64,000 nucleotides of DNA from a virus (IMGVR_UViG_3300029705_000031), one strand, 5' to 3'. Counted from the first letter of the stretch, positions 10,701 to 47,270 are shown. The notes: generated from the sequence alone by a model not told the origin. Program-made: numbers and translations.

Positions 10701-11928
10701 TATAACCATCAACATAAACTTCTACATCGTTGATAGATTTTACAGGAAGAGGTAAAGAACAACCTGCAACTTTTCTACTATTATCAACTAGAGGAAGAAT
10801 AATATGATTATTTGCATCATATTTAATATATTCTTCATCTTCCAGTTCAGTAGTATTAATAAATTCACATTCAACATGCTTTTTTCTATTAATGATTAAA
10901 TATACATCGTTTTTATTTAAATTATCTTCACTCAGATCTAGAATAAGTAATTTTCTGTAATTAAAAGGAATAAATCCCCAATTATCTACATTAGAAGTTT
11001 CTCTAGTTTCTAGAGCAAATAGAATATCACCTGCATTACAAGTAAAGTTACCATAAGTACCAGCAACTAATACTTTATAAGCTTCATTTTTCTTTACATT
11101 TTCTAAAGGTAAAGATATAATATCTGAGCCAGATCCAATCTTACCAATAGTACCTTTAAAAGTTAAAGCATCTACAAAAGGAATATATTCTTTAATAAAA
11201 GCTTTAGTATTTAATTGGAAGTATTGCTCATCTTTTTCTAAAGAAGATTTCTTAAAAATAAGTAAATTTTCTAAAACAGCAATATCTTCATCTTCATCTA
11301 AAATTTCACCATATCTACCAACATCTTGTTTCTTAATCGTATAAGTTTTAGTATTAACATTATCAATACTTATAGTAGTATAGAAAGAATTACATCTAGG
11401 TTCTTTACGAATTACTACACTGATAATATCTCCAACATTTACTTTGTTTTCATCAATCAAGAAACGTCTACCACCAGTTTTAAAGTTATAAACTTTATCA
11501 CTAGGCATTTCAATATAGTTTTTCTTAGATAATTTTATACCATTTACAAAAACATCAGAGTAGAAATCATAGTTATCTGATGCTAAAGAACTATCGGTAC
11601 AAACAATTAGAATTTTATCGCCATTACCAAAGTTTAGGTAAACAGAGTCATTATTGAAAATATTTTTATAGAGTAATTTTTGTTTAGTTTCAACACTATC
11701 AATATAAACATCGGTTTGATAAACAATGTTTGAAGAAGCTTTTAAGTATCTTCTTATATAGTCAGGATCTTCTTTAATGATCTTATCAAAAGTTTCTTTT
11801 AGTTCTTTTCTAGTAGCGTAGGGGGTAATTTGTTTTTTTAAAGCATCTATAGTAGAGATACTAGTATCTCTATTTTTCATTGCCTCCATAACAATGGAAT
11901 CAAAAGTAACTGACATTCGTTTCAACAC
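7759..11928 (-). CDS. very large hypothetical protein (1389 aa), probable virion structural/baseplate-fibre protein
   Basis: 4.2-kb uninterrupted ORF in AT-rich DNA where stops are frequent; no catalytic motifs seen. Confidence 0.6.
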   Translation of the reverse strand: MLKRMSVTFDSIVMEAMKNRDTSISTIDALKKQITPYATRKELKETFDKIIKEDPDYIRRYLKASSNIVYQTDVYIDSVETKQKLLYKNIFNNDSVYLNFGNGDKILIVCTDSSLASDNYDFYSDVFVNGIKLSKKNYIEMPSDKVYNFKTGGRRFLIDENKVNVGDIISVVIRKEPRCNSFYTTISIDNVNTKTYTIKKQDVGRYGEILDEDEDIAVLENLLIFKKSSLEKDEQYFQLNTKAFIKEYIPFVDALTFKGTIGKIGSGSDIISLPLENVKKNEAYKVLVAGTYGNFTCNAGDILFALETRETSNVDNWGFIPFNYRKLLILDLSEDNLNKNDVYLIINRKKHVECEFINTTELEDEEYIKYDANNHIILPLVDNSRKVAGCSLPLPVKSINDVEVYVDGYRLINNVDYIFVNDEDRNQYIQFIGILKPNSKVVFRNKNIDDTYNFYCKHNLDKITDYVAFNQEFQNLINIERIPNNTDLVILDTIKCVLYKDEYEEHRYRNNRDMFERFYRVIKNTDIAIAAIEKILESNPEIGKYEEIVVDEVDSILIDEAFIPNDSFEFVNNDRYLDFSLYVKSLVENNKIIINGIKVFDGVMFTKYTDDYSDIIDELVFLEESSVQTNFSYGIIDLDEYSVPICEDYIEVYLGRVRVPVCNKRSIINRYLKIDDQHITLKDAEIYSEINWSDYAKAIINMTRYPNEVRENIYTQLKNVDENNEIKNSWLKIVKDEKLDTNRKVETTDDIYYGRFKKISISTTNASDQKIKQNIYPIFRVLGYYSDEDYIDITEYCDYTFKNEFGEELPDFDTVNVGKQYVTATFNQGENGNLISDSITMEVVAIEVESIRIVSNTNIFTLNDNIFNSIRVIAHYENGNERILTEEEYTRTLTNFDGSIKYDEGIVDSEGSYIISAIYCDHIYDTKSILVSPVSSKRIKKLDVIPNSYLVDGEIITNLDIYATYNNNQIQKVTTDTVDVYVFRDDILDKESSRADYITGLVLDKEYILRLYVFNDDTKTGDPIETLTEDYTDVTIKLLNNNVKNNHQIIYYDNLTATLDENFINKYKDDDNFFYYSIKNLDGVYMSIGQAELTNAEGVMTIGVLNKNEVVAVDFYNKETKEFVQQLLFVVMDVNDIRIAAKGIFTGNIMDGYTIAINKLALNEEYSKIDFTNAALKDINGNTIVKYNTQLVNENNNYTKNSMAQYIYVCFKNFKTSTGNVQTINKYIEKSIRNGKISLDLFFDIEGINKIIELHVPEGSYTNSEFDYFKYEMLDISRVYIDDITYEDENWLIIEPIIPENEIIESVVELRPEASYKTDISASGNDIEFQLKKRESNFETTLDILRCGLNRYCYRSESNNIYVIDVDIVKVDNTAVINTINNNEIEIDN

Positions 11929-11945
11929 CTTCCTTGCTCAATTTT

Positions 11946-12908
11946 TTAACTACGACTTAATACACGAGTAATTTCAGTGTATAAATCTAGAGCATCTTTG
12001 TTAATTGTACTATCAACTAACTGATCTCTATATCCTCTAATGTTAAAGATACAAGAAGTTATAATAACTTCTAATAGTCTTTGATAATTTTCTATAACAA
12101 ATATAGAATCTTCACCATAAAGATTCATGAACTCATTTAAGAATACTCTTAGATTTAGCTTATTTAATACGTCAAAGTATTCAGATAATGCTTTAAAGAA
12201 AGTTTCTAATGATTCATAATTCTCTTTAGGGAAATCTAAATCTGTACTAAGCATTAGTTTCTTAGGACTATTACCAGAAGTGCAAGCATAAGCAATATCG
12301 TTAGTTGCATCATTTTCTGGTTGTTCTAATACATAAAGTAGGAAGAACTTAGCTAATAGATAACTAATACGGTCTGACTTCTCAGGCATTAGATTGATTG
12401 CATATAGTTTATCTAATACTTTTCTCATTAGCTTTACATAGCATTCAGCAGAAAGTTTTTTAATCTTACCATTCATAGTAAATTTTCTTTCTGTTTTTTG
12501 TAACTCTCTAGAGATATAAGCACATTCTAGATAACCATATAGTTTTTTATTATCTATTCTAACTTCACCTTGTTTGCTTTTAGTAGCACCTATAGACTCT
12601 AGATTTACTACAGCAGTTATGTCATCCTTAAGAACTCTATTCTTTATAAGAAATATTGGAACTAATCTGGTTAGTTTTACATGATCTGAAAAAACAGTTG
12701 TTATTTCTTTATTTTCATAAGAATTGATAACTTGTTGCTTTAAGGTAAATGAAAAACGTCTTTTAATGATATCGATTTCATTTTTAAAATATTCAGCATC
12801 TACTAGATCTTTTTCCCAATCTATTTTCTTTACATTTTCTCTAAAGTTTTTACCTACTTTTTCATCTTTTCTAAATAGGTAAGTATCACTTAATCCTTTC
12901 AAGCACAA
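11946..12908 (-). CDS. hypothetical protein (320 aa); first gene of minus-strand operon
   Basis: ORF preceded by 130-nt AT-rich divergent intergenic region. Confidence 0.55.
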   Translation of the reverse strand: MCLKGLSDTYLFRKDEKVGKNFRENVKKIDWEKDLVDAEYFKNEIDIIKRRFSFTLKQQVINSYENKEITTVFSDHVKLTRLVPIFLIKNRVLKDDITAVVNLESIGATKSKQGEVRIDNKKLYGYLECAYISRELQKTERKFTMNGKIKKLSAECYVKLMRKVLDKLYAINLMPEKSDRISYLLAKFFLLYVLEQPENDATNDIAYACTSGNSPKKLMLSTDLDFPKENYESLETFFKALSEYFDVLNKLNLRVFLNEFMNLYGEDSIFVIENYQRLLEVIITSCIFNIRGYRDQLVDSTINKDALDLYTEITRVLSRS

Positions 12909-23362: not shown

Positions 23363-25621
23363 ATGAATGTAGCTGAATGGTTAGGAAAAGACAACCAACT
23401 TGGAATTGATATTTGGGAAAAGAAATATCGTCAAGATGATGAATCTTTTGACGAATGGCTAGATAGAGTAAGTGGTAAGGATGATGAAGTAAAACAGTTA
23501 ATTCTTGAAAAGAAGTTTTTATTTGGTGGAAGAATTCTTTCAAATAGACTACTTGATAGAAAAGCTACTTACAGTAATTGTTACGTTCTTCCTGCTCCTG
23601 AAGATAACATAGAAAGTATTTTTGATACTGCTAAGAACATGGCTAGAACATATAGCTATGGTGGTGGTATTGGTTTTGATTTATCTAAGTTAGCTCCTAA
23701 TGGTGCTAAGATTAACAATACCGCTAAGTATACTAGTGGTGCTATTTCATTTATGGATCTATACTCCATGGTTACAGGCTTGATTGGTCAGAATGGACGT
23801 AGAGGTGCTTTGATGTTATCTATGTCAGTATCTCACCCTGACATTGAGGAATTCATTAAGTGTAAGACAGATCTAGATAGAGTTACTAAAGCAAATATCT
23901 CTGTAAGAGTTTCTGATGATTTTATGAAAGCTGTTGTAAATGATGAAATGTGGACTATGTCTTTTACAAGAGATGAAACTAAAGAAACTATTAGTAAAGA
24001 AGTTAAAGCTAAAGATTTATTCAGACTAATTTGTGAAACTAATCATAACTATGCAGAACCTGGTCTACTATTCTGGGATACTGTATCTAATGGTAACTTA
24101 CTAGAATTTGATAAGGATTTTAGTTATGCTGGTACTAATCCCTGTGGAGAAATGCCTCTACCTGCTGGTGGTGCATGTAATCTAGGTTCTATTAATCTAG
24201 CAGAATTTGTAGGTGAACCTTTTACAGATGATGCATATATTGATTATATAGATTTAGAAGAAACCGTTAGAATTGCAACTAGAGCATTAAATGAAGTTTT
24301 ACATGAAGGTTTATCTAAGCATCCTCTAGACATTCAGAAAGAATCCGTTAACAATTGGAGACAGATTGGTCTTGGTGTTATGGGTATTTCTGATATGCTT
24401 ATTAAGCTTGGTGTACGTTATGGTTCAGAAGAAGCATCTACAGTACTGTATAATGTAATGAAAACTATTGCATATGAATCTTTTAAAGAATCCTATAACT
24501 TAGCCGATAAGTATGGTTCTTATCCTAACTTTAAAAAGAATAAAGTCGTTCAGTCAGCATTTTATAAAAGATTAAATGTATTTACATCTAATAATAAGAA
24601 ACTAGATAAACTAGCAAATTCTCAGTTACTAACTATTGCTCCTACTGGTACTCTTTCCACTATGTTAGGTATTAGTGGTGGTATTGAACCTATCTTTGCT
24701 AATTCCTATACTAGAACTACTCAAAGCTTACATGGAAATAACAATGATGTAGTTTATAAAGTATATACTCCTATTGTAGAAGCATATATGAAAGCCAATG
24801 GTATAACTGATGAAAAGGATCTTCCTGATTACTTTGTAACTGCAAAGGATATCAATTGGAGAGAAAGAATCAATATGCAGGCTGCAGCTCAACATTGGAT
24901 TGATGGTGCTATTAGTTCTACTCTTAATGTACCTGAAGATTTTACAGTTGAAGATGTAATGGAAGCATATATGTATGCTTGGAACGCTGGTCTAAAGGGT
25001 ATCACTATGTTCCGTGATAACTGTAAGAGAGTAGCTATTCTAAATACTGATAAACCTAAAGAAGAAGAAAAGTCTGTTATTGAACTAGCTGATAGTCTAG
25101 TCGGTAAGAGAAAAACTCTAACTACTGGTTGCGGTAGTTTACATTTACAGGCATTCTTTGATAGACATACTGGTGAACTAAAAGAAGTCTTCTTAGCTAA
25201 GGGTTCTACTGGTGGCTGCAATAACTTCATGATTGGTTTATCTAGAATGATTAGTCTAGCTGCTAAAAATGGTGTTTCTACAGCAGAAATTGTTGATCAG
25301 CTTAATAGTTGTGGTGTATGTCCTAGTTATGCAGTAAGAAGAGCAACAAAGGGTGATACAAGTCCTGGTAGTTGCTGTCCTGTTGCAGTTGGTAAGGCAT
25401 TGATTGAATTACAGAAGGAAATGAAAGATGAGATCAATCAATTTTCTTCTAATACTAAAAAAGAATCTGCTGTTCAAAAGAAAGTAGAGAAAAAAGTAGA
25501 GAAGACTAATGCTAATGTTGATCATTCTAAACCTATTAAGTGTCCAGAATGTGGAGAACCACTAAGCTTTACTAATGGATGTGACAGTTGTACTAACTGT
25601 GGTTATTCTACTTGTTCTTAA
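23363..25621 (+). CDS. nrdJ: class II (adenosylcobalamin-type, monomeric) ribonucleotide reductase with C-terminal zinc ribbon
   Basis: NPCGEMPLPAGGACNLGSINL active-site block, TLSTMLGISGGIEPIF, C-terminal CPECGE...CTNCG; no adjacent small subunit gene. Confidence 0.8.
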   Translation: MNVAEWLGKDNQLGIDIWEKKYRQDDESFDEWLDRVSGKDDEVKQLILEKKFLFGGRILSNRLLDRKATYSNCYVLPAPEDNIESIFDTAKNMARTYSYGGGIGFDLSKLAPNGAKINNTAKYTSGAISFMDLYSMVTGLIGQNGRRGALMLSMSVSHPDIEEFIKCKTDLDRVTKANISVRVSDDFMKAVVNDEMWTMSFTRDETKETISKEVKAKDLFRLICETNHNYAEPGLLFWDTVSNGNLLEFDKDFSYAGTNPCGEMPLPAGGACNLGSINLAEFVGEPFTDDAYIDYIDLEETVRIATRALNEVLHEGLSKHPLDIQKESVNNWRQIGLGVMGISDMLIKLGVRYGSEEASTVLYNVMKTIAYESFKESYNLADKYGSYPNFKKNKVVQSAFYKRLNVFTSNNKKLDKLANSQLLTIAPTGTLSTMLGISGGIEPIFANSYTRTTQSLHGNNNDVVYKVYTPIVEAYMKANGITDEKDLPDYFVTAKDINWRERINMQAAAQHWIDGAISSTLNVPEDFTVEDVMEAYMYAWNAGLKGITMFRDNCKRVAILNTDKPKEEEKSVIELADSLVGKRKTLTTGCGSLHLQAFFDRHTGELKEVFLAKGSTGGCNNFMIGLSRMISLAAKNGVSTAEIVDQLNSCGVCPSYAVRRATKGDTSPGSCCPVAVGKALIELQKEMKDEINQFSSNTKKESAVQKKVEKKVEKTNANVDHSKPIKCPECGEPLSFTNGCDSCTNCGYSTCS

Positions 25622-25636
25622 TTAAAAACTATAAAA

Positions 25637-25669
25637 GGTATAATCCAATACGGATTATACCTTTTTTTT
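25637..25669 (+). terminator. rho-independent terminator
   Basis: ggtataatcc / ggattatacc + T8. Confidence 0.7.
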
Positions 25670-25737: not shown

Positions 25738-26169
25738 ATGAGAAAATTTTTTAACTGGCTTCATAGCCTATTTAAGAGCGAGAAAAATACAGAAATTGCT
25801 GTAATTACAGAACCTACCGATGAGGTAATTGAAGAAAAGAATGATGAAGAATTAGATATCCCTGTAGAAGAAACTATTGAAACTGAGTGTCACTGTGAAG
25901 AGTGTAATTGCGATAAGCAGTCTGATGAAGATTTCTTAAAGAATCTTGATTGGGATAACTTAGATTTGTATGATTTACATACACTATATTCTCTTGATCT
26001 AGAAAATTACTGTGATGACTTAGTTAACTGGTATAAGATTTCTAAGATTAAGGGCCTACCTGATGATTTCATTCGTAAGTATAAGGACAAGATCATCTGG
26101 AAAGAGTATAACAAGAGTTACTTAAGACATAAGACTAGAGATATGCTTAGAGAAGAAGGATATCTATAA
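25738..26169 (+). CDS. hypothetical acidic protein (143 aa) with one copy of the Trp-anchored repeat (NWYKISKIKGLPDDFIRKYKDKIIW)
   Basis: ORF; C-terminal module similar to repeats of 26358..27581. Confidence 0.45.
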   Translation: MRKFFNWLHSLFKSEKNTEIAVITEPTDEVIEEKNDEELDIPVEETIETECHCEECNCDKQSDEDFLKNLDWDNLDLYDLHTLYSLDLENYCDDLVNWYKISKIKGLPDDFIRKYKDKIIWKEYNKSYLRHKTRDMLREEGYL

Positions 26170-26176
26170 TAGATAA

Positions 26177-26213
26177 TACAGATATAGCTTAACAAAAGCT
26201 ATATCTGTATTTT
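26177..26213 (+). terminator. rho-independent terminator
   Basis: acagatatagctt / agctatatctgt + T-run. Confidence 0.6.
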
Positions 26214-26357
26214 TCAATTATAAAAATATCTATTATTCTAACTTTGATATAAAAGAATTATTTCTTTAAAAATGCTTAAAATAATTCCATATATCAAAAT
26301 AACGTATGGTTTACAAACATACATTAAAATTCTATTAAGAAAAGGAGAAGATCAAAT

Positions 26358-27581
26358 ATGACTGATCAGAAAAGATTTAACAAATCTGTTATTGATGAAG
26401 AAGATGAAATTGAAGAATATAGCGATGATCCTAGAAATGTAAAGTACAAGAAATTTGTAAAACTATTTGACATGCCTGATGAAGAAAGACTAAAGATGTT
26501 TGATCATTTCTTTAGTGAAGAAGCTAATCATAAGTTCTGGAACTATTGTAATGAGTTTAATCAACTTTCTATTCCATTTGTAGAATACTTTATGGATATG
26601 CTTCCTACTAAGTATTGGAAGACTCAGGCTAGAAAACTAATTAGACATGATTTAGATGAAACATTTGCTGATCATTTTGCTGATAAGATCTACTGGCCTT
26701 TGGCTTCTAAGGAAATGACAAAGCTCAGACAGGTTGATGAAGAACTAATTAGAAAATATGATAAGTATTGGGATTGGACTCAGATTTCTAAGGCTAGATT
26801 GTCTGAAGATCTAATTGAAGATTACAAGTATTGCGTAGATTGGACTGAAGTATCTATGCATTCTAGACTATCTGAAAACTTTATTCGTAAACATGTTAAT
26901 GATGTAAACTGGGAAAAGATTTCTGAATGGCAAAGAACTCTATCTGAAGACTTTATTCGCCAGTATCAAGATATGGTTAACTGGAAGTTCATCTCTCAGT
27001 ATCAGAAACTATCTGAAAAGTTTATGGATGAGTTTGCTGATAAGATTGATTGGTTCTATGCTTCTAAATCTCAGAAAATGTCTGAAGGATTTATTGCAAA
27101 GCATAGAGATGATGTTGACTGGGGAAGAATTTCTCGTTATCAAGTACTAAGCATGTACTTTATTCGTCAGTATAAGAATTATGTAAAGTGGAATAGTATC
27201 TTTATGTATCAGAAAACATCTGAAAAATTTAAAGAAGAATTTGCTGAGTTCTATCAGCCTTATGAAGACAAGTTAAAGAAAAAGGGAAAAGGTGTTAGAG
27301 CACAGAAACGTAAGATGGCAGCAAAGGCAGTCTTAGAAGATGAATGGCGTAAGGAACGTGGCTTTGAAAATCAATCTGAAAATTTCAAATATAGTAAGAG
27401 ACCTTCTGGTAAGCCTTTACTAAGAAATGAACAGCAGATTAGAGAAGAGCGATCTATTGTTAATAGATCTAGTGCTCGTACAGTTGTCAAACCTGGTGAT
27501 CGTTATACACCTGTTACTAGACCTACTATTGCTAAAGAAGTAAATGAAGCAAGAGATGAATCTCTTAAGAAACACTTTTAA
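26358..27581 (+). CDS. tandem-repeat protein (407 aa) built of ~9 copies of a 23-residue W-x(3)-IS-x(2)-Q-x-LSE-x-FI-x(4)-D-x-V-x repeat
   Basis: repeat units start with W at 22-24 residue spacing (WTQISKARLSEDLIEDYKYCVD, WEKISEWQRTLSEDFIRQYQDMVN, WKFISQYQKLSEKFMDEFADKID ...); 69-nt periodicity in DNA. Confidence 0.6.
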   Translation: MTDQKRFNKSVIDEEDEIEEYSDDPRNVKYKKFVKLFDMPDEERLKMFDHFFSEEANHKFWNYCNEFNQLSIPFVEYFMDMLPTKYWKTQARKLIRHDLDETFADHFADKIYWPLASKEMTKLRQVDEELIRKYDKYWDWTQISKARLSEDLIEDYKYCVDWTEVSMHSRLSENFIRKHVNDVNWEKISEWQRTLSEDFIRQYQDMVNWKFISQYQKLSEKFMDEFADKIDWFYASKSQKMSEGFIAKHRDDVDWGRISRYQVLSMYFIRQYKNYVKWNSIFMYQKTSEKFKEEFAEFYQPYEDKLKKKGKGVRAQKRKMAAKAVLEDEWRKERGFENQSENFKYSKRPSGKPLLRNEQQIREERSIVNRSSARTVVKPGDRYTPVTRPTIAKEVNEARDESLKKHF

Positions 27582-27591
27582 GTTTTAACAA

Positions 27592-27642
27592 TAAAGATAA
27601 AGTATGATTAACCTATTTAGAGAATCATACTTTATCTTTTTT
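27592..27642 (+). terminator. rho-independent terminator
   Basis: aaagataaagtatgatt / aatcatactttatcttt + T-run. Confidence 0.6.
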
Positions 27643-27663
27643 AAAAGAATGAGGATTTTACAT

Positions 27664-28068
27664 ATGAATAATTCAGATACAGAAAAGAGTTTTTTAAACT
27701 TTGAACTAACTTTGGAAGCCTATGACGCAATAATGGATTATATAGAGGACAATAACTTACTAAATGAAGATAATGCTGAAAGTTTTAGTATCTATGAAAG
27801 TCTAATGTTTGAATTAGCTATAGCTGAAGTAACTAAACTAAAACAAGTACTAATACAAGAAAATGCTAAATACTTATTAGCATTATTAGAAGTTAAAAAA
27901 GCTAAAGCAATGATAGATGATTTAATAAAAGAAATTACAAAAATGGCTGAGAAAGAAAAGCTAGAAAAAGAAAGAAAAGAGCAAGAACAGAATGATACAG
28001 TAAAATCTACTAAGGAATCTTTTATAGATACACTAAAGGGTAAGTTCTCTAAGTTTTTTAATCTATAA
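27664..28068 (+). CDS. coiled-coil protein (135 aa); start moved to ATG 27664 (GAGGA RBS) because ATG 27604 lies inside terminator hairpin
   Basis: RBS tgaggatt 7 nt before ATG 27664; Lys/Glu-rich heptad-like sequence. Confidence 0.45.
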   Translation: MNNSDTEKSFLNFELTLEAYDAIMDYIEDNNLLNEDNAESFSIYESLMFELAIAEVTKLKQVLIQENAKYLLALLEVKKAKAMIDDLIKEITKMAEKEKLEKERKEQEQNDTVKSTKESFIDTLKGKFSKFFNL

Positions 28069-28070
28069 TC

Positions 28071-28110
28071 AAAAATAGTATAGTTTTTATAAAAACTATA
28101 CTATTTTTAA
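28071..28110 (+). terminator. rho-independent terminator
   Basis: aaaaatagtatagttttt / aaaactatactattttt. Confidence 0.6.
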
Positions 28111-28179
28111 ATCTTTATTTTACTTATAAACATATATCATAATTCAGGTAAAATAAAAAGAAAGGAAATTTCATATCTT

Positions 28180-28785
28180 ATGGAAAACATTAAAAAGACT
28201 AAAAATTTCTTTTGTAGAAAATGCTTAACATCATATATCATCCCAACTGAATATAAAAATGAAATTGTAAATCTAACAGAGAATATAAAGATTGATCAGC
28301 ATCTAAACTTTACTTATAAGTGTTGTAAGTGTGGCCATGATGCTGAAGAAATTGATGAAAAGATGTTTTATAACGTCATAAAACTGAATAAAATGGGTTT
28401 CTATACTGATTATTGTTGTGAAGGTCATTCAGAAGATGATAAGAATATGGATAGTGGCACTTATATTAAATTTCTAAGTTTTGATGAACGTTTCTGTGAT
28501 GATTTTAGAAAAATGGATGAAGAAAAACATTTATATCTAAAATCTTTCTTAGAAAGAGAAATTAGAAATCATCCACTACTAAACTTTGAAATAAGCAAAT
28601 ATGATCATTCAATATCAATCGATATGAACTATAATTCAGATGAATTTGATAGATACATTGATGATAAAGGTTTTGAATATGTCAAAACTGAAACTCTATC
28701 ACAATTTGATGAACTCATCAAAAAATTAGAAAAACAAATAACAAGAGAAGAAAAAATGAAGAACTATAAGAAAGGAAACTATTAA
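28180..28785 (+). CDS. zinc-ribbon-containing hypothetical protein (201 aa)
   Basis: CRKC...CCKCGH cysteine pairs; AAAGAAAGGAAAT RBS context. Confidence 0.45.
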   Translation: MENIKKTKNFFCRKCLTSYIIPTEYKNEIVNLTENIKIDQHLNFTYKCCKCGHDAEEIDEKMFYNVIKLNKMGFYTDYCCEGHSEDDKNMDSGTYIKFLSFDERFCDDFRKMDEEKHLYLKSFLEREIRNHPLLNFEISKYDHSISIDMNYNSDEFDRYIDDKGFEYVKTETLSQFDELIKKLEKQITREEKMKNYKKGNY

Positions 28786-28789
28786 AAAC

Positions 28790-29347
28790 ATGAATAATAA
28801 CGAAAATGCAACTGTAATTGTAAAGGATAGAACTATCATTTTCTCTGGTGTTATCGATTCTGAAGCCGCTGGTAAAGGTATTTATGCTATCAAATCAATT
28901 GAAGATGAAGATAATGATAATGAATCTCATCTAAAGACTTATAATAGAGAACCTATCAATCTTATCATTAATTCTAATGGTGGTAATGCTTATGATGCAT
29001 TAGCATTGATTGATGTAATTGAAACTAGTAAAACTCCTATTCATACATATGCATATGGGATGATTATGAGTGCAGCATTACCTCTATTTGTAGCTGGTGA
29101 TAAGAGATTCTGTGGTAGACGTGTAACCTTTATGCATCATGAAGCTGCTGCTAGAATTGATGATTATTCTAGTATTATTTCAGCAAAAGCTAAAGAAGTT
29201 GAACGTGTCGGTAAGGTTATTGATGATGTCTTAATTGAAAGAACTAAAGTTACTGATAAGATGGTAAAACAGTGGTATAATGAAAGAGAAAAATATTTTG
29301 ACGCACAGGAAGCATTAAAGTTAGGAATTGTTCATGAAATTCTATAA
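28790..29347 (+). CDS. ClpP-family (S14) serine peptidase homologue
   Basis: INSNGGNAYDALALIDVI, GMIMSAALPL (Ser), FMHHEAAA (His) align to ClpP GG/Y-D/GxAASMG/MIHQP blocks. Confidence 0.6.
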   Translation: MNNNENATVIVKDRTIIFSGVIDSEAAGKGIYAIKSIEDEDNDNESHLKTYNREPINLIINSNGGNAYDALALIDVIETSKTPIHTYAYGMIMSAALPLFVAGDKRFCGRRVTFMHHEAAARIDDYSSIISAKAKEVERVGKVIDDVLIERTKVTDKMVKQWYNEREKYFDAQEALKLGIVHEIL

Positions 29348-29366
29348 GTAAAGGAACTTTTGGTTT

Positions 29367-30302
29367 ATGGATGGTGAAATGAAAAAGTTTATAAAATATT
29401 ACAAAAAAGAATTTGATAATAATGGAAATTTGATTGATACTAAAGAAGTAAAACTTTCATTTGATAACATGATTAAGCATTCAAATTGTTTTGACTGGTA
29501 TTACTTATCTAATAACATAACTGAAGATACTTGCACCAGAGATTTCATTACAACATTTGGCGAACATCTTAAATGGTATAATGGTAATTTCCTTATGTAT
29601 GTGCCTGATGATATAATTCTAAAAAATATGAATCGAATTGATAAAGGTTCTATTTTTAGTAGAAGACAATTTTCAGAAGAATTTTGTAGTAAGATTTTGG
29701 ATGATATTTTGAATACATCTCCAAAATATGCTAATGACATGTACTTTACAAACTTGAAGTATATGATAAAGTATCAAAAGAATCTTTCAAATGACTTCTT
29801 ACAGAAATATCTTTTTACTAAAATCACTACTGATAAGGTTAAAGGTATTATTCCAGACTATCGTGTAGGAGAGTTAATGAGGAATCTAGCTGAATATTTT
29901 CCTCTTACAGAAGAACAGTATTTGATTTATATAGTAAAAACTTCTAAATATACAACCAAATTTAGTAGATTTACAGCTTTAGTTAATGCGGATAGTAATT
30001 ACAGTCTAGATTTCATTAAAAATCATAGAAAAGGTTTAAATGAAAAAGCTTTCTTAAATACCGATCAAGTAAAATACTATCTATCACATAATAAGATTTC
30101 TGAAAATGCATTAACTGTATTTAAGCAGAGAATTAACTGGATCGATCTTATTAATAGCCATGAAACAAAAGCTGAAGTTTTAGAATATATGGGAAAACAC
30201 TGTAAGAAAGAAATATTTGATACTATAATGAAGCATTCAGACAAACTAAACAACAAAAAGAATCTAGAAATAGTTAATAGATCAATTTCAGAAAAAGTGT
30301 AA
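29367..30302 (+). CDS. hypothetical protein (311 aa) with degenerate copies of the Trp-anchored repeat (DWYYLSNNITEDTCTRDFITTFGEHLKWYNG)
   Basis: paralogy at motif level with 26358..27581 and 25738..26169. Confidence 0.45.
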   Translation: MDGEMKKFIKYYKKEFDNNGNLIDTKEVKLSFDNMIKHSNCFDWYYLSNNITEDTCTRDFITTFGEHLKWYNGNFLMYVPDDIILKNMNRIDKGSIFSRRQFSEEFCSKILDDILNTSPKYANDMYFTNLKYMIKYQKNLSNDFLQKYLFTKITTDKVKGIIPDYRVGELMRNLAEYFPLTEEQYLIYIVKTSKYTTKFSRFTALVNADSNYSLDFIKNHRKGLNEKAFLNTDQVKYYLSHNKISENALTVFKQRINWIDLINSHETKAEVLEYMGKHCKKEIFDTIMKHSDKLNNKKNLEIVNRSISEKV

Positions 30303-30428: not shown

Positions 30429-30761
30429 ATGTTTAAAATTATGAAAAAGGAAAAATATGAACTAAGATACTTTTCTGTAAAAATACCTGATGTTGGTATT
30501 GAAAGCATGAATAGCAAACAATTAGAAGCCTATTATTCGAAAGAAAAAATCATTCAATTAGCACAAGATAATGTAATTGAAATTTCATCATTTACACTAT
30601 CTAAAATGTCAAATGAAGCTATAATTAGATTTAGTGTATTTGATAATTCTTTAAAAGATAAGTTTTTAAACATTCTTAATAAAGACTATCGTGAATTGTT
30701 ATTGATCAGAAGTTTGACACCGTTAGGAAGAATTAGAAATGTACACTGGATCTGCAAATGA
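30429..30761 (+). CDS. hypothetical protein (110 aa)
   Basis: ORF, overlaps start of deaminase gene by 23 nt. Confidence 0.4.
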   Translation: MFKIMKKEKYELRYFSVKIPDVGIESMNSKQLEAYYSKEKIIQLAQDNVIEISSFTLSKMSNEAIIRFSVFDNSLKDKFLNILNKDYRELLLIRSLTPLGRIRNVHWICK

Positions 30762-31366: not shown

Positions 31367-31561
31367 ATGAATAACTTTAAGGTTAAGGAAATGCAGAATA
31401 TTCTTAGAAATAATGGTTATGCAAAGAAAAGACATCGTGGATCTCATGAAATCTGGTATAATGATGATAAAAATGATACTGTAGTTATTACTAATCGTAA
31501 GAAAGGTGTTAATTACTTTACAGCAACTAAAATGATGAAAGAACATTGTATTGTAAGATAA
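31367..31561 (+). CDS. hicA: HicA-like mRNA interferase toxin homologue
   Basis: 64 aa; LRNNGYAKKRHRGSHEIW...VVITNRKKGVNYFTATKMMKE matches HicA GFxxxRxxGSHxxW...V consensus. Confidence 0.55.
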   Translation: MNNFKVKEMQNILRNNGYAKKRHRGSHEIWYNDDKNDTVVITNRKKGVNYFTATKMMKEHCIVR

Positions 31562-32336: not shown

Positions 32337-33866
32337 ATGGCGACTAAAAAGAATCTAACATATAACGAAGATAGTATTAAAGTCCAAGAATATCCTGATA
32401 ATGTAAGATCTAATCCTACAGTCTATATCAGTAGTCTTGGTAAAGAAGGTAATACGCATCTACTAAGAGAAGTAATTGATAACTCTATTGATGAATTCCT
32501 AAATGGTTTTGGTAAAACAATTACAATTGAAATTTCCAATAAAAAAGGTGTATTTAGAGTAATTGATGAAGGTCGTGGTGTTCCTCCTAAATCTATTGAA
32601 AGAGCATTTACTACATTACATGCTTCAGGTAAATTCGATAAAGATAGTTATAGCACATCAGGTGGTCAGCATGGTCTTGGTAGTACATGTGTTAATGCAC
32701 TTAGTAAGTATTTCCTTGTCATTACACATGAAGGTGGTCATGAATACTCTCAAAGATTTGAATATGGTAAGAAAGTAACTGAACTAAAAGATTTAGGAAA
32801 GTCTGATAAGGTAGGTACTATTGTAGAGTTTTGTCCTGATGAATCTGTAATGGATACATTTGAGATTGACATTGAATCAGTCAAAGATGAATGTAAGATG
32901 AAGTCTTTTATCAATAAAGGACTTACTATCATTATTAAGGACATGGATGAAAAGAAACAGGCTAAGTATTATCATAAAGATGGTATTGAGGAATACGTAC
33001 AGTTAAATGCTAAGAAAGCTCTATTTAATCCTATTACATTCTCTACATCAACTACTGTTAACAAGGCTAATAAAGAATTGAATGTAGAAATCGATTGTTC
33101 CTTTACTTATGATAACTCTACTGATCCTATCAATATTAAATCCTTCTGTAATTCCATTTATACTAGTGATGGCGGTACTCATGAAACTGGTTTTAAAACA
33201 GCTCTTACTAGTTTGATTAAAAAGTATATTGCTGATAATAACCTACTAACTAAAAAAGATGCAAATCTAGACATTACTGGTGATTCAGTTCAGGAAGGTG
33301 TAGTAGCAGTAGTATCTATCAAACATCCTCATCCGATGTATGATCAGCAGTCTAAGAAAAAGCTTAACTCTACAGAAGTTTCTGGTGCAGTAATGAAAGC
33401 AGTTAATGCAGAATTTAGTAAGTGGATTGAAACCCATGCTAAAGAAATGAAAGTACTTTGTACTAAAGTAATTGAATCTGCAAAGGCTAACAGTGCTGCT
33501 AAGAGAGCTAAAGAACTAGCTAATAAGAAATCTGAAAATGGAATTACTGCTGTTTCTGATCTATCAAAATTAGCTAACTGTATTTCTAAGAAACCTGAAG
33601 AATGTGAACTGTTTGTAGTTGAGGGTAATTCTGCAAGTTCAAGTGCTAGAAATGGTAGAGATAAGCAAACTCAGGCTGTTTATGCTCTAAGAGGTAAGAT
33701 TCTCAATACTAACAATCTAGCTGAAACTAAGATTTTTGAAAATAAGGAACTATCAGATTTGATTTATATCTTAACTGGTAAGAAAACTGCAATTGGTAAG
33801 AATTTCAATGTTGAAGACATGAAGTATCATAAACTGGTAGCCTTGACTGATGCTGACGATGACGGT
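32337..33866 (+). CDS. type IIA DNA topoisomerase ATPase subunit (GyrB/T4 gp39-like), exon 1 (GHKL ATPase + transducer + first half of Toprim, ends ...LTDADDDG)
   Basis: GHKL motifs EVIDNSIDE, IDEGRGVP, GGQHGLGSTCVNALS; Toprim VEGNSASSSARNGRDKQTQAVYALRGKILN; ORF stops 3 codons after DADDDG where GyrB continues SHIRTLLLTFFYR. Confidence 0.85.
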
Positions 33867-35157
33867 AAATGACACATTAAGTCTGCATCAGTGAGAAATT
33901 TTCTAACAATACATTAGTATTAATGTTAGGAGGTTTCATTCAAATGAAAAATGAAAAAGAAACTAAAGAAAGATATGCTTCTGGTATTGAAAATTGTAAA
34001 AAACAAGCTCAAAATCTTAAACAAAAAGCATCTGAAAAATTTTTAAGTAAAGTTTACGAACAAGTTGGTGATGATTATACTTTTCTGGAAACTTATGTAA
34101 CGAGTAAAACTAAACTCTGGGTAATACATAATGTTTGTGGACATAAGTATAGAGTAACTCCAAATGAGTTTACTTCTCATAAAAGACGTTGTCCAAACTG
34201 TGCAAATAAAAAAAGAGTACTTAATACTGGAATAAAACCTCATACATTAGAATCTATTATTGAAAGTGTAAAAGAATTATCTAATGACGAATATGAGGTA
34301 GTTAGTAATGAGTATGAAAATAATAAAGAAAAAATTTGGGTTAGACATAAAACATGTAGTTATTCATACCTTGTTCGTTATAATGACTTTCAGCAAGGAT
34401 ATAGATGTCCTTTATGTGCTGACATGAATAAAAGTCAGAATAATTCTAAACCAATACAGGATATTAAAAGTGTTCTAGATTTTAATAAAATTGAGTATGA
34501 ATCAGAAGTGTCATTTGAAGAATGTGTAGACAAACGTTTTCTTCCATTTGATATATTGGTTTATACTGATAAAGTCAATGATGAATACTTTTTAATTGAG
34601 TATGATGGACAACAACATTCTGATCCTAATGCACAATTTGGAGGAACTAAAGAAGAAAGACTTATTAGATTTGAGCTAACTCAAAAACATGACACTATAA
34701 AAAATGCTTTTTGTGAAGAAAACAGTATAAAACTTTATAGAATTTCTTATAAAGAAGATTTGATGAGCAAACTAAGAAGTATATTGGAAGAAAATAATCT
34801 AATTTGACTTGCAGTGAATGCCGTCTAAAAACCTAGTTAACTGCGGGAAACTATCAATAAACACTATTTACTAAACTAAGATAGTAATATACTTAGTGGC
34901 AATGGGTAACTCCAAAGATATAGTAAAAAGAATAGTGTTTGATACAATCGACGCAACGAAGTATCCTACATTTAGTAAAAGATAGGATATGAGTTCAACG
35001 ACTATCGAAACCAACTAACTTAATGTTAGTAATAAGGTAAGTTGAAATACTTACACGAAGGGAGTAGAGTAGGGAAATGTAAATTACAAAGTACCGAAAA
35101 GCTAGGCTATACTAATTTAGTATAGAAAATATAGTCTAAATTATGCAAAGTAATTTG
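33867..35157 (+). mobile_element. group I self-splicing intron (ORF in P1 loop) interrupting the GyrB-like gene inside the Toprim DxDxD motif
   Basis: IGS gccgtc (34818..34823) complementary to exon end gacggu with U.G at the splice site; P-like element aactgcgggaaa (34840..34851); R element gttcaacgactatcgaaacc (34993..35012); S element aaaatatagtc (35127..35137) giving P7 gacta/tagtc; omega-G 35157; exon 2 restores ...HIASLILGFVYRH. Confidence 0.8.
33923..34807 (+). CDS. intron-encoded putative homing endonuclease: three CxxH/CxxC zinc-finger-like repeats + C-terminal Vsr/DUF559-like (EDxHD-type PD-(D/E)xK) nuclease domain
   Basis: repeats CGHKYRVTPNEFTSHKRRCPNCA, CSYSYLVRYNDFQQGYRCPLCA; C-terminal FDILVYTD...LIEYDGQQHSD...RLIRF pattern typical of Vsr-like nucleases; AGGAGG RBS. 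Confidence 0.5.
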   Translation: MLGGFIQMKNEKETKERYASGIENCKKQAQNLKQKASEKFLSKVYEQVGDDYTFLETYVTSKTKLWVIHNVCGHKYRVTPNEFTSHKRRCPNCANKKRVLNTGIKPHTLESIIESVKELSNDEYEVVSNEYENNKEKIWVRHKTCSYSYLVRYNDFQQGYRCPLCADMNKSQNNSKPIQDIKSVLDFNKIEYESEVSFEECVDKRFLPFDILVYTDKVNDEYFLIEYDGQQHSDPNAQFGGTKEERLIRFELTQKHDTIKNAFCEENSIKLYRISYKEDLMSKLRSILEENNLI

Positions 35158-35982
35158 CTTCACATTGCAAGCCTTATCTTAGGATTTGTATATAGACATG
35201 CTAAACCCATTTTGGAAAAAGGTTACATGTATATTGCAATGCCTCCTCTTTATTCTATCATTGAAAGAAATAAGAAACGTTATTTCTTAAATCAAGAGGA
35301 ATATGATGCATATATTGAGGAAAAGATTTTTGAAAACTATGTATTTAGTTGTAATGAGATAGGTTTAAATAAGACTAAAGCTAAAACCATTCTTAAGAAT
35401 TTTGAAACTTACAAAAACAAAGTAAGTGAACTATCTACTAGTACAGGTATCAATATGTATTTAATTGATGATGTATGTGATTATTTACGTACTAATGAAA
35501 ATGCAACAAGTAAGGATATTGTGAATTTATTAAAACAGATTGGTGATTTTGAATTCTTTAAGAATGATGAAGGAAATTCTGAGATTAATGGTCTTTATGA
35601 TAATAGCTTTGTAAATGCAGTAATTAAGGATTTAGTAAAGTCTGCTAAAAAAGCTAAGAAGATTCTAGAAGATCTTAGTATTCCTGAAGAAGTATTCATC
35701 AATGATTATCATCTATCAATTAAGAACTATCAAGACATGTATAACAAGGTTACACCTAAGTCCAGAAGTCGATTCAAAGGCTTGGGAGAAATGGATGCTA
35801 ATGAACTTTGGGAAACTACTCTTGATCCTTCAGTTAGAAACATTATGCAAGTTGTACTATCAGATGAAGAAAAGACAGATGATACTATGGATACACTACT
35901 AAATTCTAATAGTAAGTATGCAGACAAACGTAAAGTATTCTTAATGAAAAATCAGCAAAAGATTAAGGAATTAGAAATCTAA
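35158..35982 (+). CDS. type IIA topoisomerase ATPase subunit (GyrB-like), exon 2 (rest of Toprim and C-terminal domain)
   Basis: HIASLILGFVYRHAKPILEKGYMYIAMPPLY aligns with GyrB HIRTLLLTFFYRxMxxLIExGxVYIAQPPLY; exact 3' splice site +/- a few nt. Confidence 0.8.
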   Translation, partial: LHIASLILGFVYRHAKPILEKGYMYIAMPPLYSIIERNKKRYFLNQEEYDAYIEEKIFENYVFSCNEIGLNKTKAKTILKNFETYKNKVSELSTSTGINMYLIDDVCDYLRTNENATSKDIVNLLKQIGDFEFFKNDEGNSEINGLYDNSFVNAVIKDLVKSAKKAKKILEDLSIPEEVFINDYHLSIKNYQDMYNKVTPKSRSRFKGLGEMDANELWETTLDPSVRNIMQVVLSDEEKTDDTMDTLLNSNSKYADKRKVFLMKNQQKIKELEI

Positions 35983-39727: not shown

Positions 39728-42700
39728 ATGGCACAGAATGTAATTCAAAAGGATATTGTTGATATTCAAAAAGACAATATGCTTCAGTATATGATGTCTC
39801 TAATGTATGATAGAGCGATTCCTGATATTAGAGATGGATTAAAACCAGTACAGAAATTTATCCTTTGGAGTTGTTACAGTTCAGGTTTCTTTCCAAATAA
39901 ACCCCATGTAAAGTGTGCTAAGATTGCTGGTGATGTTATTGCTAACTTCCATCCACATTCACTAGATGCAGCTTATGAAGCATTGTGTAGACTTGCTCAG
40001 ACTCATTCTATGAATATTCCATTAATTGATTTTCATGGTGCATGTGGTTCTATTGATGGATCAGGCGCAGCAGCTCATAGATATTGTGTGACTGGTGATA
40101 CCTTAATTAGTCTACCAAATGGTAAATTAAAAAGAATTGATGAACTAATTGAAAATTCTAATGATGATTCAACTATGGATGTAGATTTTGAAGTATTAGA
40201 TTTTAAAAATAATCCAGTACATGTTTCTAAATTCTTTAATTCTGGAAAACATGATATAATCAAGATTAAAACCAGTTCTGGTTGTACTATTAGAGGTAGT
40301 TATAATCATCCTATCTTGTGTTTATATAAAAATCCTACTGATGGTCTACCAGAATTCAGATGGACAACTTTAGATAAAATTGAAACTGGATGTTATGCTG
40401 TTATAGCATCTAAATTCAATAATTCTTTTAATGAAACTATAAGTGAAGAAGAAAAGCTTAAAGCAATTTTCTTTGGTGGAATGGTTTCTGAAGGAGGTTT
40501 ATCTAAAAATCAGAGATACTATAGAGTAAGTTTCTCCAATCAAGATAATGAATACTATAATCTAGTGGAATCTGGATATAAAGTATATCTTGAAGAGAAT
40601 AATCTAAGTAATTTGAATATTCGTATTAATCCAAATGCTCGTGGTGGAGTTAAAGAATTTTGTACTGAAGACAAAAATCTTCATAATTTAGTTAAAGAAC
40701 AAATTGGTGAAGATGCTCATAATAAACAGATTCCTCCCTATGTTCTAAACTCTAATTTAGAAATTCAAAGATGGTTTTTAAAGGCACTTTTTGAAGGAGA
40801 TGGAGGAGTAACATGTCGTTTAGATAAAAGAAGAAAAGATAATGTTACTGGACATGTATTTTATTCTACTTCTTCAACAAAACTTTTGAATGAATTAAAA
40901 ATTCTATTAATGAATTTTGGTATTAGAACTAAAGTTACTAAAGACAGATCTAATTTTAAACTTACAATTTATTCTTTAACTGACATGAAAATTTTTAAAG
41001 AAAAAATAGGATTTTTAAGTGATAGAAAAAATAAAGTATTGAATGAATTAGTAGAAAATAAAGAAATACAAATTACTAAGTCTTATGGTGTTTCTTCTTC
41101 AGATAAAATTCCATATCTTGCCGAATTCATTAGAAATAATAAACTTAGAAATACACATTATTTAAAGTCTCATAGCCTAAATTGTAAACAAGATATAGAT
41201 AAACATAATGATGTAATTAAAGATTCTTTGAGTTATGAAGAATATTTTAAGCTTATGAGAAAACTTGAAGTTTTAGATTTATACCATTATGAAGAAATTA
41301 TTGAAGTTGAAAGACTACCAGAAGAAGTAGTATATTCAATTAAAGTAGATTCTAATGATCATAGTTTTATTAGTAATGGTTTTATTAGTCATAATACTGA
41401 GGCAAAACTTAGTAAATATGGATTAGATATTCTTAGTGAAATCGATAAGGATGCTGTTGATTTTGAAAAGAACTATGATGTAACTAAAGATCAACCAACT
41501 GTTTTACCTGCAGTAATTCCTAATATCCTATTGAATTCTTCAATGGGTATTGCAGGTGGTTATGCTTCTTCAATTCCTCCACATAACATCAAGGATGTAT
41601 GTAATACTGTATGTGAACTAATTGATAATCCTAATATGTCAGTTCAAGATGTAGCTAAGAAACTAGTTCCTGACTTTCCTACAGGTGGTATCTTATGTTC
41701 TAAGAAGGAAATTGAAAAAGCTTACATTACTGGTCAGGGTTCAGTAAAACTAAGAGGTAGAGCAACTATCAATAGAAATAAGAATAACACATCAGAAATT
41801 GTTATTACTGAAATTCCATTTATGACTACAATTGGTCCTCGTATGAGTGGCACATCTACTAATACTGAGGGTGGTTTGATTAATTCCATTGTAGCTAAGA
41901 TTAAAGATGGTACAATTGATGGAATTAAGGATATTCACGATATTTCTGATAAGAATGGTCTATGTATTAAAGTTTTTATCAAGAAAGATTATGACCCTGA
42001 TGTTATTCTAAATCAGTTATACAAGTTCACTCAGTTAGAATCTACTTTTAAGATCATTCTAGTTTGTAAGAATGGTAATTTCTTTAAGGTTTATAACATC
42101 AAGGAAATTCTAACTGAATGGATTGAATTCCGTGTATCTACTATTAGACGTATCATTACACATGATATCAAGAAAGCTAAGTATCGTGAACATATTCTAG
42201 AAGGTCTATTAAAAGCATTAACTGATATCGATACTGTTATTAGTATCATTAAGAAAGCTAATGGAAGAGCTGATGCTAAAGTAAAGTTAGTTAGGAAATA
42301 TGGATTTACTGATTTACAGGTTGAAGCTATTCTTGACATGAAACTTTCTCAGTTAAACTCTCTAGATGGAAAGAAGCTAGAAGAAGAAAAACTAAGTAAG
42401 CAAAAAGAAATTCTAGAACTAAAAGAGAATTGGAAAGAATCCAATATCTATGAAAGAATTAAGAAAGAACAGAAAGAATTTGCTAAAAAATATGGTAGTG
42501 AAAGAAAGACTACTGTAGAAGAGATTGATACTGATATTACTACTGAAGACATTATTGCTGATGAAGATACTTTGATTGTCATTACTCAGGGTAATTACAT
42601 TAAGCGTATTTCAAATGAGTTTAGAACTCAGAAACGTGGTACTCAGGGTATTTCTATTGGTGATAACTCTATCACAGAAATGTTCTCTGCTTCTACTAAG

Positions 42701-43543
42701 GATCATCTACTATGTTTTACTAATACTGCCAGAGTCTATGATTTAAAAGCTTATGACATTAAAGAATCTAAGGATCTTAAAGCTAAGGGTTTAAGAATTG
42801 AAAATTATCTAAATCTAAAAGAAAATGAAACAGTTACTAACATTCTATGTATCAATAATACACAGATGAATGATAATGAATCCTTCCTAGTTTTCGCTAC
42901 TAAGAATGGTATGATTAAGAAAACTAAGTTAGAAGAATTCAATAACATTCGTTCTACTGGTATTATTGCTTTGATGTTAAAGTCTGGTGATGAACTAGTT
43001 TCTGTAAAGTATATTGATACTAGTAAACCTATGCAAGATATCTTGATTTCTACTAAAAATGCTCAGACAGTTAGATATGATCATGAAGAAATCAAAGAAT
43101 TAGGTAGAAATACCTATGGTGTAATTGGTATTAATCTAGAAAATGATGACCGTATTACAGATATGTGTATCATTGAAGATGACGAACAACTAATCTTCTT
43201 TGCTACTAAAAATGGTTTAGGTAAAACTATTCGTATTACTGATAATGTAGAAAAAGTTGATCCCAATACTAAAGAAAAAGTAATCATCAATGATGGTTTT
43301 CCTAGACTAAAACGCTCATCCAACATTAAAGGCAGACTATGCATGAAACTAAAAGAAAATGACGAATTAGTTTCAATGGTAGCTATCAATAATGTAAATG
43401 ACGAACTAATGATTGTTACTGATAGCAAACTATTAGTAGTCAATACTGAAGAATTCAAAGAACCTTTAAAGAGACCTACTTATGGTAAGAAATTAGTTAG
43501 TTTGACTAATGAAGACTATGTAAGAAAGGTGATTCTAAAGTGA
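39728..43543 (+). CDS. type IIA topoisomerase DNA breakage-reunion subunit (GyrA/ParC-like; precursor containing an intein)
   Basis: N-terminal GyrA blocks HPHSLDAAYEALCRLAQ and AAAHRY(active-site Tyr)...TEAKLSKYG split by intein; C-terminal beta-pinwheel-like repeats. Confidence 0.85.
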   Translation: MAQNVIQKDIVDIQKDNMLQYMMSLMYDRAIPDIRDGLKPVQKFILWSCYSSGFFPNKPHVKCAKIAGDVIANFHPHSLDAAYEALCRLAQTHSMNIPLIDFHGACGSIDGSGAAAHRYCVTGDTLISLPNGKLKRIDELIENSNDDSTMDVDFEVLDFKNNPVHVSKFFNSGKHDIIKIKTSSGCTIRGSYNHPILCLYKNPTDGLPEFRWTTLDKIETGCYAVIASKFNNSFNETISEEEKLKAIFFGGMVSEGGLSKNQRYYRVSFSNQDNEYYNLVESGYKVYLEENNLSNLNIRINPNARGGVKEFCTEDKNLHNLVKEQIGEDAHNKQIPPYVLNSNLEIQRWFLKALFEGDGGVTCRLDKRRKDNVTGHVFYSTSSTKLLNELKILLMNFGIRTKVTKDRSNFKLTIYSLTDMKIFKEKIGFLSDRKNKVLNELVENKEIQITKSYGVSSSDKIPYLAEFIRNNKLRNTHYLKSHSLNCKQDIDKHNDVIKDSLSYEEYFKLMRKLEVLDLYHYEEIIEVERLPEEVVYSIKVDSNDHSFISNGFISHNTEAKLSKYGLDILSEIDKDAVDFEKNYDVTKDQPTVLPAVIPNILLNSSMGIAGGYASSIPPHNIKDVCNTVCELIDNPNMSVQDVAKKLVPDFPTGGILCSKKEIEKAYITGQGSVKLRGRATINRNKNNTSEIVITEIPFMTTIGPRMSGTSTNTEGGLINSIVAKIKDGTIDGIKDIHDISDKNGLCIKVFIKKDYDPDVILNQLYKFTQLESTFKIILVCKNGNFFKVYNIKEILTEWIEFRVSTIRRIITHDIKKAKYREHILEGLLKALTDIDTVISIIKKANGRADAKVKLVRKYGFTDLQVEAILDMKLSQLNSLDGKKLEEEKLSKQKEILELKENWKESNIYERIKKEQKEFAKKYGSERKTTVEEIDTDITTEDIIADEDTLIVITQGNYIKRISNEFRTQKRGTQGISIGDNSITEMFSASTKDHLLCFTNTARVYDLKAYDIKESKDLKAKGLRIENYLNLKENETVTNILCINNTQMNDNESFLVFATKNGMIKKTKLEEFNNIRSTGIIALMLKSGDELVSVKYIDTSKPMQDILISTKNAQTVRYDHEEIKELGRNTYGVIGINLENDDRITDMCIIEDDEQLIFFATKNGLGKTIRITDNVEKVDPNTKEKVIINDGFPRLKRSSNIKGRLCMKLKENDELVSMVAINNVNDELMIVTDSKLLVVNTEEFKEPLKRPTYGKKLVSLTNEDYVRKVILK
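40085..41395 (+). mobile_element. intein (437 aa) with LAGLIDADG homing-endonuclease domain, inserted immediately after the catalytic tyrosine codon of the GyrA-like gene
   Basis: block A CVTGDTLISL, block B GSYNHPIL (TxxH), two LAGLIDADG motifs AIFFGGMVSEGG and FLKALFEGDGGV, block G VYSIKVD...ISHN followed by +1 Thr (TEAKL); removal restores AAAHRY-TEAKLSKYG. Confidence 0.9.
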
Positions 43544-47199: not shown

Positions 47200-47212
47200 G
47201 CCATACTAATAG

Positions 47213-47270
47213 AGTTTAAGAGTTAGAGAAAAATAAAAAATTCTCTAACTCTTAAACTTTTTTCTTTTTT
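47213..47270 (+). terminator. rho-independent terminator (long-loop hairpin)
   Basis: agtttaagagttagag / ctctaactcttaaact + T-runs. Confidence 0.6.

Follow-up and report, generated by a model that had tools for sequence, protein, structure and literature searches.

The interval 25738-30302 of a 64,000-nucleotide stretch of viral DNA (IMGVR_UViG_3300029705_000031; the whole stretch is called the window below) contains six open reading frames (ORFs), all in the same orientation (plus strand), which encode protein A, protein B, a coiled-coil-like protein (CC), a Cys-rich protein (Zn), a ClpP-like serine peptidase and protein F. Proteins A, B and F are related through a Trp-anchored repeat that, according to the original prediction, may be an undescribed solenoid and possibly a substrate adaptor for the adjacent peptidase. 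The window comes from a low-GC phage with a genome of roughly 300 kb, and the presence of a CHAP+SH3 endolysin indicates that the host is probably Gram-positive. The six-gene cassette is located between the genes for ribonucleotide reductase (RNR) and dCMP deaminase, in a replication and nucleotide metabolism module that further includes genes for DnaB, a helicase, GyrB, GyrA and a CCA-adding enzyme, and the A, B and F genes are on the early-type strand. Megablast of the region against GenBank phages gave no match, and a PADLOC scan of the cassette found no match to a defence system.

Protein B (407 aa; 26358..27581) is the canonical tryptophan-repeat member of the cassette. Its Trp residues 61, 87, 113, 140, 162, 185, 209, 232, 255 and 278 are spaced by 22-27 residues and define ten Trp-anchored units, three loose units of 26-27 aa at the N-terminal side followed by seven of 22-24 aa. 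The repeats had been foreseen as about nine consecutive Trp-initial copies; their presence was borne out, and the count was revised to ten. A hidden Markov model (HMM) of the unit, built from 706 units of distant homologues with the window sequences excluded, matched B with E 4e-33 and recovered five units at full length (E 1e-10 to 7e-6), with five further matches that were weaker or incomplete. No 69-bp tandem repeat was found in the DNA encoding B, where the periodicity exists at the protein level only, and the repeats are thus not the product of a recent DNA amplification. Orthologues of B begin at Met39. The ten units make up a mildly acidic repeat domain (residues 61-300; 26538..27257; pI 6.0), which is followed by a basic C-terminal tail (residues 301-407; 27258..27578) with a pI of 10.2 and a net charge of +13.

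On the basis of sequence comparison, the repeat is that of the 'tryptophan repeat gene family' of large DNA viruses, which has already been named and corresponds to PHROG 3532 (function unknown, no structural label); B matches phrog_3532 with E 1.7e-74. The unit of about 23 residues has the consensus W-x-x-I-S-x-Y-Q-K-L-S-E-x-F-I-R-E-F-x-D-K-V-x, and 548 homologues of B in a large protein collection have the consensus W..IS..QKLSE.FIREF.DKV. In jumbo phages of Firmicutes, matches to the repeat were found by tblastn at 36 places in Listeria phage LPJP1, 36 in Bacillus phage BpSp, 21 in phage G and six in Clostridium phage c-st, and the matched genes of BpSp are annotated as 'tryptophan repeat gene family protein'. 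The top matches of B among the predicted structures of BFVD, searched with Foldseek, were the entomopoxvirus family members MSV027 (E 2.5e-20), AMV029 (E 2.7e-19) and MSV205 (E 1.9e-17), gp558-563 of phage G (gp563, E 2e-17), and proteins from Marseille-, Pitho-, Orpheo- and Megaviridae, from an iridovirus and from a nucleopolyhedrovirus, all with 27-35% identity. The family name reportedly dates from the entomopoxvirus genome papers of 1999-2000. As the repeat is named in entomopoxviruses and in Bacillus phages BpSp and G, it cannot be regarded as undescribed.

The placement of the repeat outside the common repeat classes was correct, since no sequence model and no clear structural match assigned it to the TPR, ankyrin, HEAT/ARM, PPR, LRV, LRR or MORN repeats. 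No Pfam or NCBIfam model matches it, B as a single sequence matched no PDB sequence, and Foldseek of the B model against PDB gave nothing below E 1. The family profile matched nothing in PDB but engineered OspA repeats; this match was rejected, as the periodicity of 23 residues and an 'LSEKYI' motif are coincidental in this β-sheet protein.

The family is present in multiple copies in large viral genomes. The window contains three members, and a 299-kb sister contig (L079) has a further copy about 40 kb away. A scan of GTDB species genomes with a synthetic consensus of five units, a pattern-limited query also used for the related loci, found the repeat on metagenome-assembled contigs only and never in isolate genomes, which fits a viral family. 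Large tandem expansions of the family are exemplified by an ENA scaffold of 108 kb (L008), in which an uninterrupted row of six Trp-repeat genes, each of up to 15 units, spans positions 16-11724 and adjoins a gene for a CCA-adding/HD enzyme. Many metagenomic relatives of B end in a DUF7666 domain, and a Pfam scan of 119 family members for fusions revealed only DUF7666, in five of them, and otherwise noise. One family member, in AgentSmith, is labelled 'oligoendopeptidase F'; as it is only 200 aa long and all repeat, it is not a peptidase fusion.

The suggestion that the repeat forms a solenoid was upheld by structure prediction. An AlphaFold2 model of B computed from a 119-sequence alignment has a pLDDT of 95-98 over residues about 100-290 and shows two short helices per unit, of seven and six residues; a single-sequence model (mean pLDDT 40) was set aside in its favour. 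Helix A is predicted to comprise approximately the first seven positions of the unit and helix B six positions in its middle, and the units are predicted to stack into an α-solenoid.

The 706 units of distant homologues are highly conserved at the framework positions 1, 4, 5, 8, 10-12, 14, 15, 18 and 22 (about 77-100%), while no residue exceeds 20% at positions 2, 3 and 6 and the most frequent one at position 7 reaches 45%. The pattern is inverse among orthologues of B, in which positions 2, 3, 6 and 7 are conserved (0.83-0.97) and positions 13, 16, 17 and 19-21 are not (0.37-0.63 only). From helical periodicity, positions 2, 3, 6 and 7 would form an exposed face of helix A opposite a core of W1, I4 and Q8. 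As this face is the only hypervariable part across the family, yet strongly conserved among B orthologues, we infer that it is a candidate specificity surface for one fixed partner in the clade.

The tail of B is modelled with low confidence, yet it is the best-conserved part of the protein among B orthologues, and it is probably disordered until bound. An exhaustive HMMER search of 1.84 billion representative proteins with the tail matched only its own orthologue group. A tripeptide 'RGF' in the tail was considered as a ClpX-like IGF docking motif and rejected for lack of a hydrophobic first residue. B shares 76% identity with its sister-phage orthologue, as compared with 80% for the helicase, 89% for GyrB, 53% for the ClpP-like protein, 36% for F and 35% for A.

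Protein A (143 aa; 25738..26169) is strongly acidic (pI 4.6); its N-terminal half is acidic and contains a CHCEECNC cluster. Its one clear Trp-repeat unit, residues 98-119, was detected by the unit HMM (E 2e-8) and aligns with the family profile (hhalign 95%, E 5e-8), and protein A matches phrog_3532 (E 3.7e-4); the W72-W98 segment may be a degenerate second unit. Protein F (311 aa; 29367..30302) escaped the unit HMM. Its residues 29-110 align with the family profile (hhalign 90%, E 1.7e-6), it matches phrog_3532 (E 1.9e-5), scattered weak BLAST matches to B run along it, and tblastn with B found the F orthologue in a related phage (L115) with E 6.6e-7. Of the one to three repeat copies expected in each of the two ORFs, A has one clear unit, possibly two, and F is a degenerate relative. 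The proposal that the three repeat proteins are paralogues is supported by these comparisons.

The ClpP-like serine peptidase (185 aa; 28790..29347) matches Pfam CLP_protease with 85.5 bits (cut-off 20.2; E 5e-24) over positions 12-179 of the 182-position model. In alignments to solved ClpPs, its Ser94 and His117 fall on catalytic residues, in line with the Ser and His blocks noted before, and the position of the catalytic Asp is occupied by Glu167; related phage proteins carry Asp or Glu there. Canonical ClpP has at its N-terminus an axial loop of about 20 residues, which controls access to the pore and connects the peptidase with ClpX, ClpA or ClpC. The window protein has no such loop: its residues 10-11 align with residues 23-24 of solved ClpPs, i.e. 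about 13 residues are missing, and a subfamily alignment showed that the whole phage subfamily is equally short at the N-terminus. The protein scores below all NCBIfam cut-offs (best ClpP score 74.3 versus 228; TIGR00493, 50.4 versus 308.6; the ClpP-related head protease model NF045542, 62.4 versus 120 bits). Matches to PHROG head-protease families (phrog_94, E 1.4e-27) are expected for any protein of the ClpP fold. Automated annotation as 'ATP-dependent Clp protease' or as 'head maturation protease' is therefore doubtful for this subfamily.

Relatives of the ClpP-like protein with 31-43% identity are found in large phages among nucleotide and replication genes, including Bacillus phages Kirov, Skywalker and KLEB27-3, Vibrio phage 2.275.O and the huge phages LR756500 and LR756504; a scan of IMG/VR with the protein gave no relatives. 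The neighbours are genes for thymidylate synthase, DHFR, thymidine kinase and Pol III in Kirov, replication and recombination genes in KLEB27-3, MutT in Vibrio phage 2.275.O, GyrA, ligase, ThyA and DHFR at two further loci (L112 and L113), and a CCA-adding enzyme at another (L114). The prohead protease of Kirov (gp270) is a separate protein, encoded between the portal and capsid genes and unrelated to ClpP by phmmer. Owing to this setting, shared by the window protein and its relatives, and to the separate, non-ClpP prohead protease of Kirov, it is well supported that the ClpP-like protein is very unlikely to be the prohead protease, in agreement with the original prediction. Portal, capsid and terminase genes were sought in the 64-kb window, and none was detected. 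ClpP is patchily distributed in jumbo phages and has been proposed to target host proteins (PMC7824862), and phage G has ClpP and ClpX in addition to a separate head protease (PMC12484599).

The genes between B and the peptidase are as described before. The CC gene (27604..28068; start at 27664, giving 134 aa, according to gene callers) encodes a helical, coiled-coil-like acidic protein that matches no Pfam or PHROG family. The Zn gene (28180..28785) encodes a 201-aa CxxC...CxxC protein with a weak match to phrog_21654 (E 3.4e-4).

The cassette was found in five lineages, in each of which it lies between the RNR and dCMP deaminase genes. The gene order is A-B-CC-Zn-ClpP-F in the window and in L109, A-B-CC-ClpP-F in L108, A-(64 aa)-B-ClpP-F in L006, and A-CC-Zn-ClpP-F, with no B, in L115. 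Only A, ClpP and F are therefore constant, CC being present in four and Zn in three of the five lineages. F starts 19 bp downstream of ClpP in the window; for the other four lineages, gene coordinates give a gap of 14-17 bp.

A pattern scan for terminator-like sites revealed five in the region, as compared with 0.9 expected. One hairpin (25633..25665, plus strand; stem of 14-15 bp followed by a T run) is located after the RNR gene and another (26175..26211, plus strand; 16-bp stem) after gene A. The hairpins bracket gene A only, and after 26211 the scan found no further site before 30800. Thus, the genes from B through F probably form a single transcription unit.

The RNR slot upstream of the cassette is occupied in the window by a gene for a 752-aa RNR with a TSCPD domain (23363-25621). 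The same RNR type is found in L108 (4109-7304), where it is interrupted by a LAGLIDADG ORF, and an anaerobic NrdD plus its activase take the slot in L006 (6300-9016) and L115; the RNR module has been exchanged at a fixed position among sister phages.

We propose, with a probability of about 0.6, that in A, B and F, as members of the virus-wide tryptophan repeat gene family, the predicted solenoid serves as a protein-binding scaffold for a host or phage protein in the early or middle phase. In each unit, the Trp, Ile, Leu and Phe residues would pack into a core, and successive two-helix units would stack upon each other as an α-solenoid. The exposed face of helix A (positions 2, 3, 6 and 7) would confer specificity on the scaffold, to which B would add its clade-specific, conserved and very basic tail. 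The repeat genes would probably be co-transcribed with the ClpP-like peptidase, and the repeat proteins may act by sequestration or recruitment of the bound protein.

Several points weigh against this proposal. A literature search found no experiment on any tryptophan-repeat family member, and hence the function is deduced from architecture alone. The fold is a prediction, and the viral structures that it matches are predictions likewise. The exposed face was assigned from helical periodicity and not measured on model coordinates. The conserved basic tail of B could mean nucleic-acid binding instead, and the conserved synteny with ClpP in the five lineages would also fit a functional link, which we rate as less likely.

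Such a link would make the cassette a dedicated protease module, in which F and/or B regulate the co-transcribed ClpP-like peptidase or select its substrates as adaptors, by analogy with the repeat-plus-F-box adaptors through which eukaryotic viruses direct host proteins to degradation. This is unlikely, even though ClpP and F are adjacent, with their short gap, in all five lineages, B is upstream in four of them and no terminator-like site separates B from F. The absence of the loop that canonical ClpP uses with ATPases means that the ClpP-like protein may need another partner, and an entomopoxvirus family member, AMV254, has an F-box (PMC7728225), so that the repeat can be paired with degradation machinery. 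However, the association does not extend beyond the clade. Of 67 Trp-repeat loci in IMG/VR (1.13 Mb), a ClpP-like gene lies within 10 kb at only one, separated by about 7 kb from the closest repeat gene, and none of 24 loci from metagenome-assembled genomes has one nearby, i.e. one locus of 91 in total; none was found either at four annotated-phage or other metagenomic loci (L001, L008, L009 and L012). Conversely, none of eight distant ClpP-like loci (31-41% identity; L013-L016, L112-L114 and Kirov) has a Trp-repeat gene or a homologue of A, B, CC, Zn or F nearby. The neighbourhood is a trait of this lineage and no rule of either family, and shared descent among the five closely related cassette lineages can suffice to explain the synteny. 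L115 keeps ClpP and F without B, and A, B, F, CC and Zn gave no Pfam, NCBIfam or PADLOC match to Clp adaptor domains, be it those of ClpS, MecA and SspB or of further adaptors. The adaptor role suggested for the repeat proteins is consequently unsupported outside this clade.

If any of the repeat proteins is a partner of the peptidase, F is a better candidate than B. In a more specific form, which we regard as rather improbable, F would select substrates for a ClpP-like peptidase that is truncated at its N-terminus and works without an ATPase, and B would be a second, dispensable selector, in a phage-encoded module for degradation of host proteins. If true, this would provide the first function for a 25-year-old orphan family and a parallel to the F-box-linked entomopoxvirus member. 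Still less probable is that the solenoid and/or the tail of B act on nucleic acids in the replication module, binding DNA or RNA of the phage or the host as the helical-repeat proteins of the PPR or Pumilio type do. The charge and the high conservation of the tail, and the location of the genes among those for replication and nucleotide metabolism, are consistent with this, but the repeat domain of B is mildly acidic, A is strongly acidic, and a tail confined to one orthologue group cannot explain the family as a whole. The least probable reading, which we consider very improbable, is that the proteins are structural or decoration proteins of the virion. It would be in line with BpSp, in which five family genes in tandem precede a 'major virion structural protein' gene by a few kb, and with AgentSmith, in which a family gene abuts virion structural genes. 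Against it are the replication and nucleotide metabolism setting and early-type strand of the genes here, the lack of a structural label for PHROG 3532 and, in the searched text of the multi-omics paper on phage G, the mention of family members only as proteins of unknown function.

Several known systems resemble the locus. The closest is the tryptophan repeat family itself (MSV027, MSV029, MSV205 and AMV029; BpSp gp123-127; phage G gp556-563), with which B shares the Trp-anchored repeat at the identity given above and a predicted structure (Foldseek E about 1e-17 to 1e-20). Unlike these, B has a clade-specific conserved basic tail of its own and is found as one orthologue per related phage at this locus, outside a large tandem expansion. 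The ClpP-like gene flanked by repeat genes here is likewise atypical of the family, many metagenomic relatives having DUF7666 at their end instead. The leucine-rich repeat variant (LRV, PDB 1lrv) and HEAT-like/alphaRep α-solenoids are also among the closest known systems. The ankyrin-repeat/F-box families of poxviruses and further multigene repeat families in large DNA viruses are similar only by analogy in having a repeat scaffold with few hypervariable surface positions and a multi-copy expansion; their repeat type is unrelated, and no effector domain is fused in A, B or F. As regards the peptidase, other non-head ClpPs of large phages (MEROPS S14) share the Ser and His residues, an acidic third residue, the short N-terminus and the replication/nucleotide setting, but only the clade of the window has Trp-repeat neighbours, and the window protein has Glu at the third position of the triad. 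In contrast to phage G, which has a ClpX-like gene (PMC12484599), no ClpX-like gene is visible in the 64-kb window.

The locus is thus an additional member of a known, functionally orphan family, and its value is as a tractable, conserved representative. The Trp-repeat family is among the few repeat families common to jumbo phages and eukaryotic large DNA viruses, the latter including entomopox-, irido-, baculo-, Marseille- and pithoviruses. To this family the locus adds a solenoid predicted with high confidence, a candidate specificity surface and, in B, a well-conserved member with a unique basic tail, which is better suited to experiments than the large tandem expansions of other viruses, which evolve fast. 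It also documents an axial-loop-less ClpP-like subfamily that recurs in replication/nucleotide modules of large phages. The current understanding is unchanged, and the main effect is to correct the impression of an undescribed repeat.

Several features of the window outside the cassette were also recorded. Downstream of F, a 110-aa ORF (30429-30761) overlaps the start of the dCMP deaminase gene; it is kept in L109 and L115, and PADLOC aligned it weakly (E 2.9e-4) with the C-terminal end of a CARF-HEPN model. It is followed by a 64-aa HicA-toxin-like ORF (31367-31561; Pfam HicA_toxin), which is conserved in sister phages. The gyrB gene (32337-35982) is split into an N-terminal part of 511 aa (32337-33872) and a C-terminal part of 279 aa (35143-35982), separated by a 294-aa ORF (33923-34807) with faint matches to DUF4379/Zn-ribbon. 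It is intact (783-785 aa) in L006, L108 and L109 and split as in the window in L115. The arrangement suggests that a mobile element was inserted, perhaps an intron whose ORF is homing-endonuclease-like.

A GyrA-like gene (39728-43543; 1271 aa) carries an intein with a LAGLIDADG endonuclease (Pfam Intein_splicing and LAGLIDADG_3) between two DNA_topoisoIV segments. On the minus strand, a block at 3365-12908 includes large ORFs of 457, 332, 530, 1389 and 320 aa, with no PHROG or Pfam match except for the 320-aa ORF (phrog_21032, virion structural protein). The block probably encodes proteins of the virion or tail and contains the sole structural genes seen in the window. A run of genes at 46258-51630 encodes a MoxR-type ATPase-like protein (phrog_1297), a 389-aa ORF, a DUF2201 protein (metallopeptidase/VWA-like) and a Band_7/stomatin-like protein, and could be a membrane-associated module.

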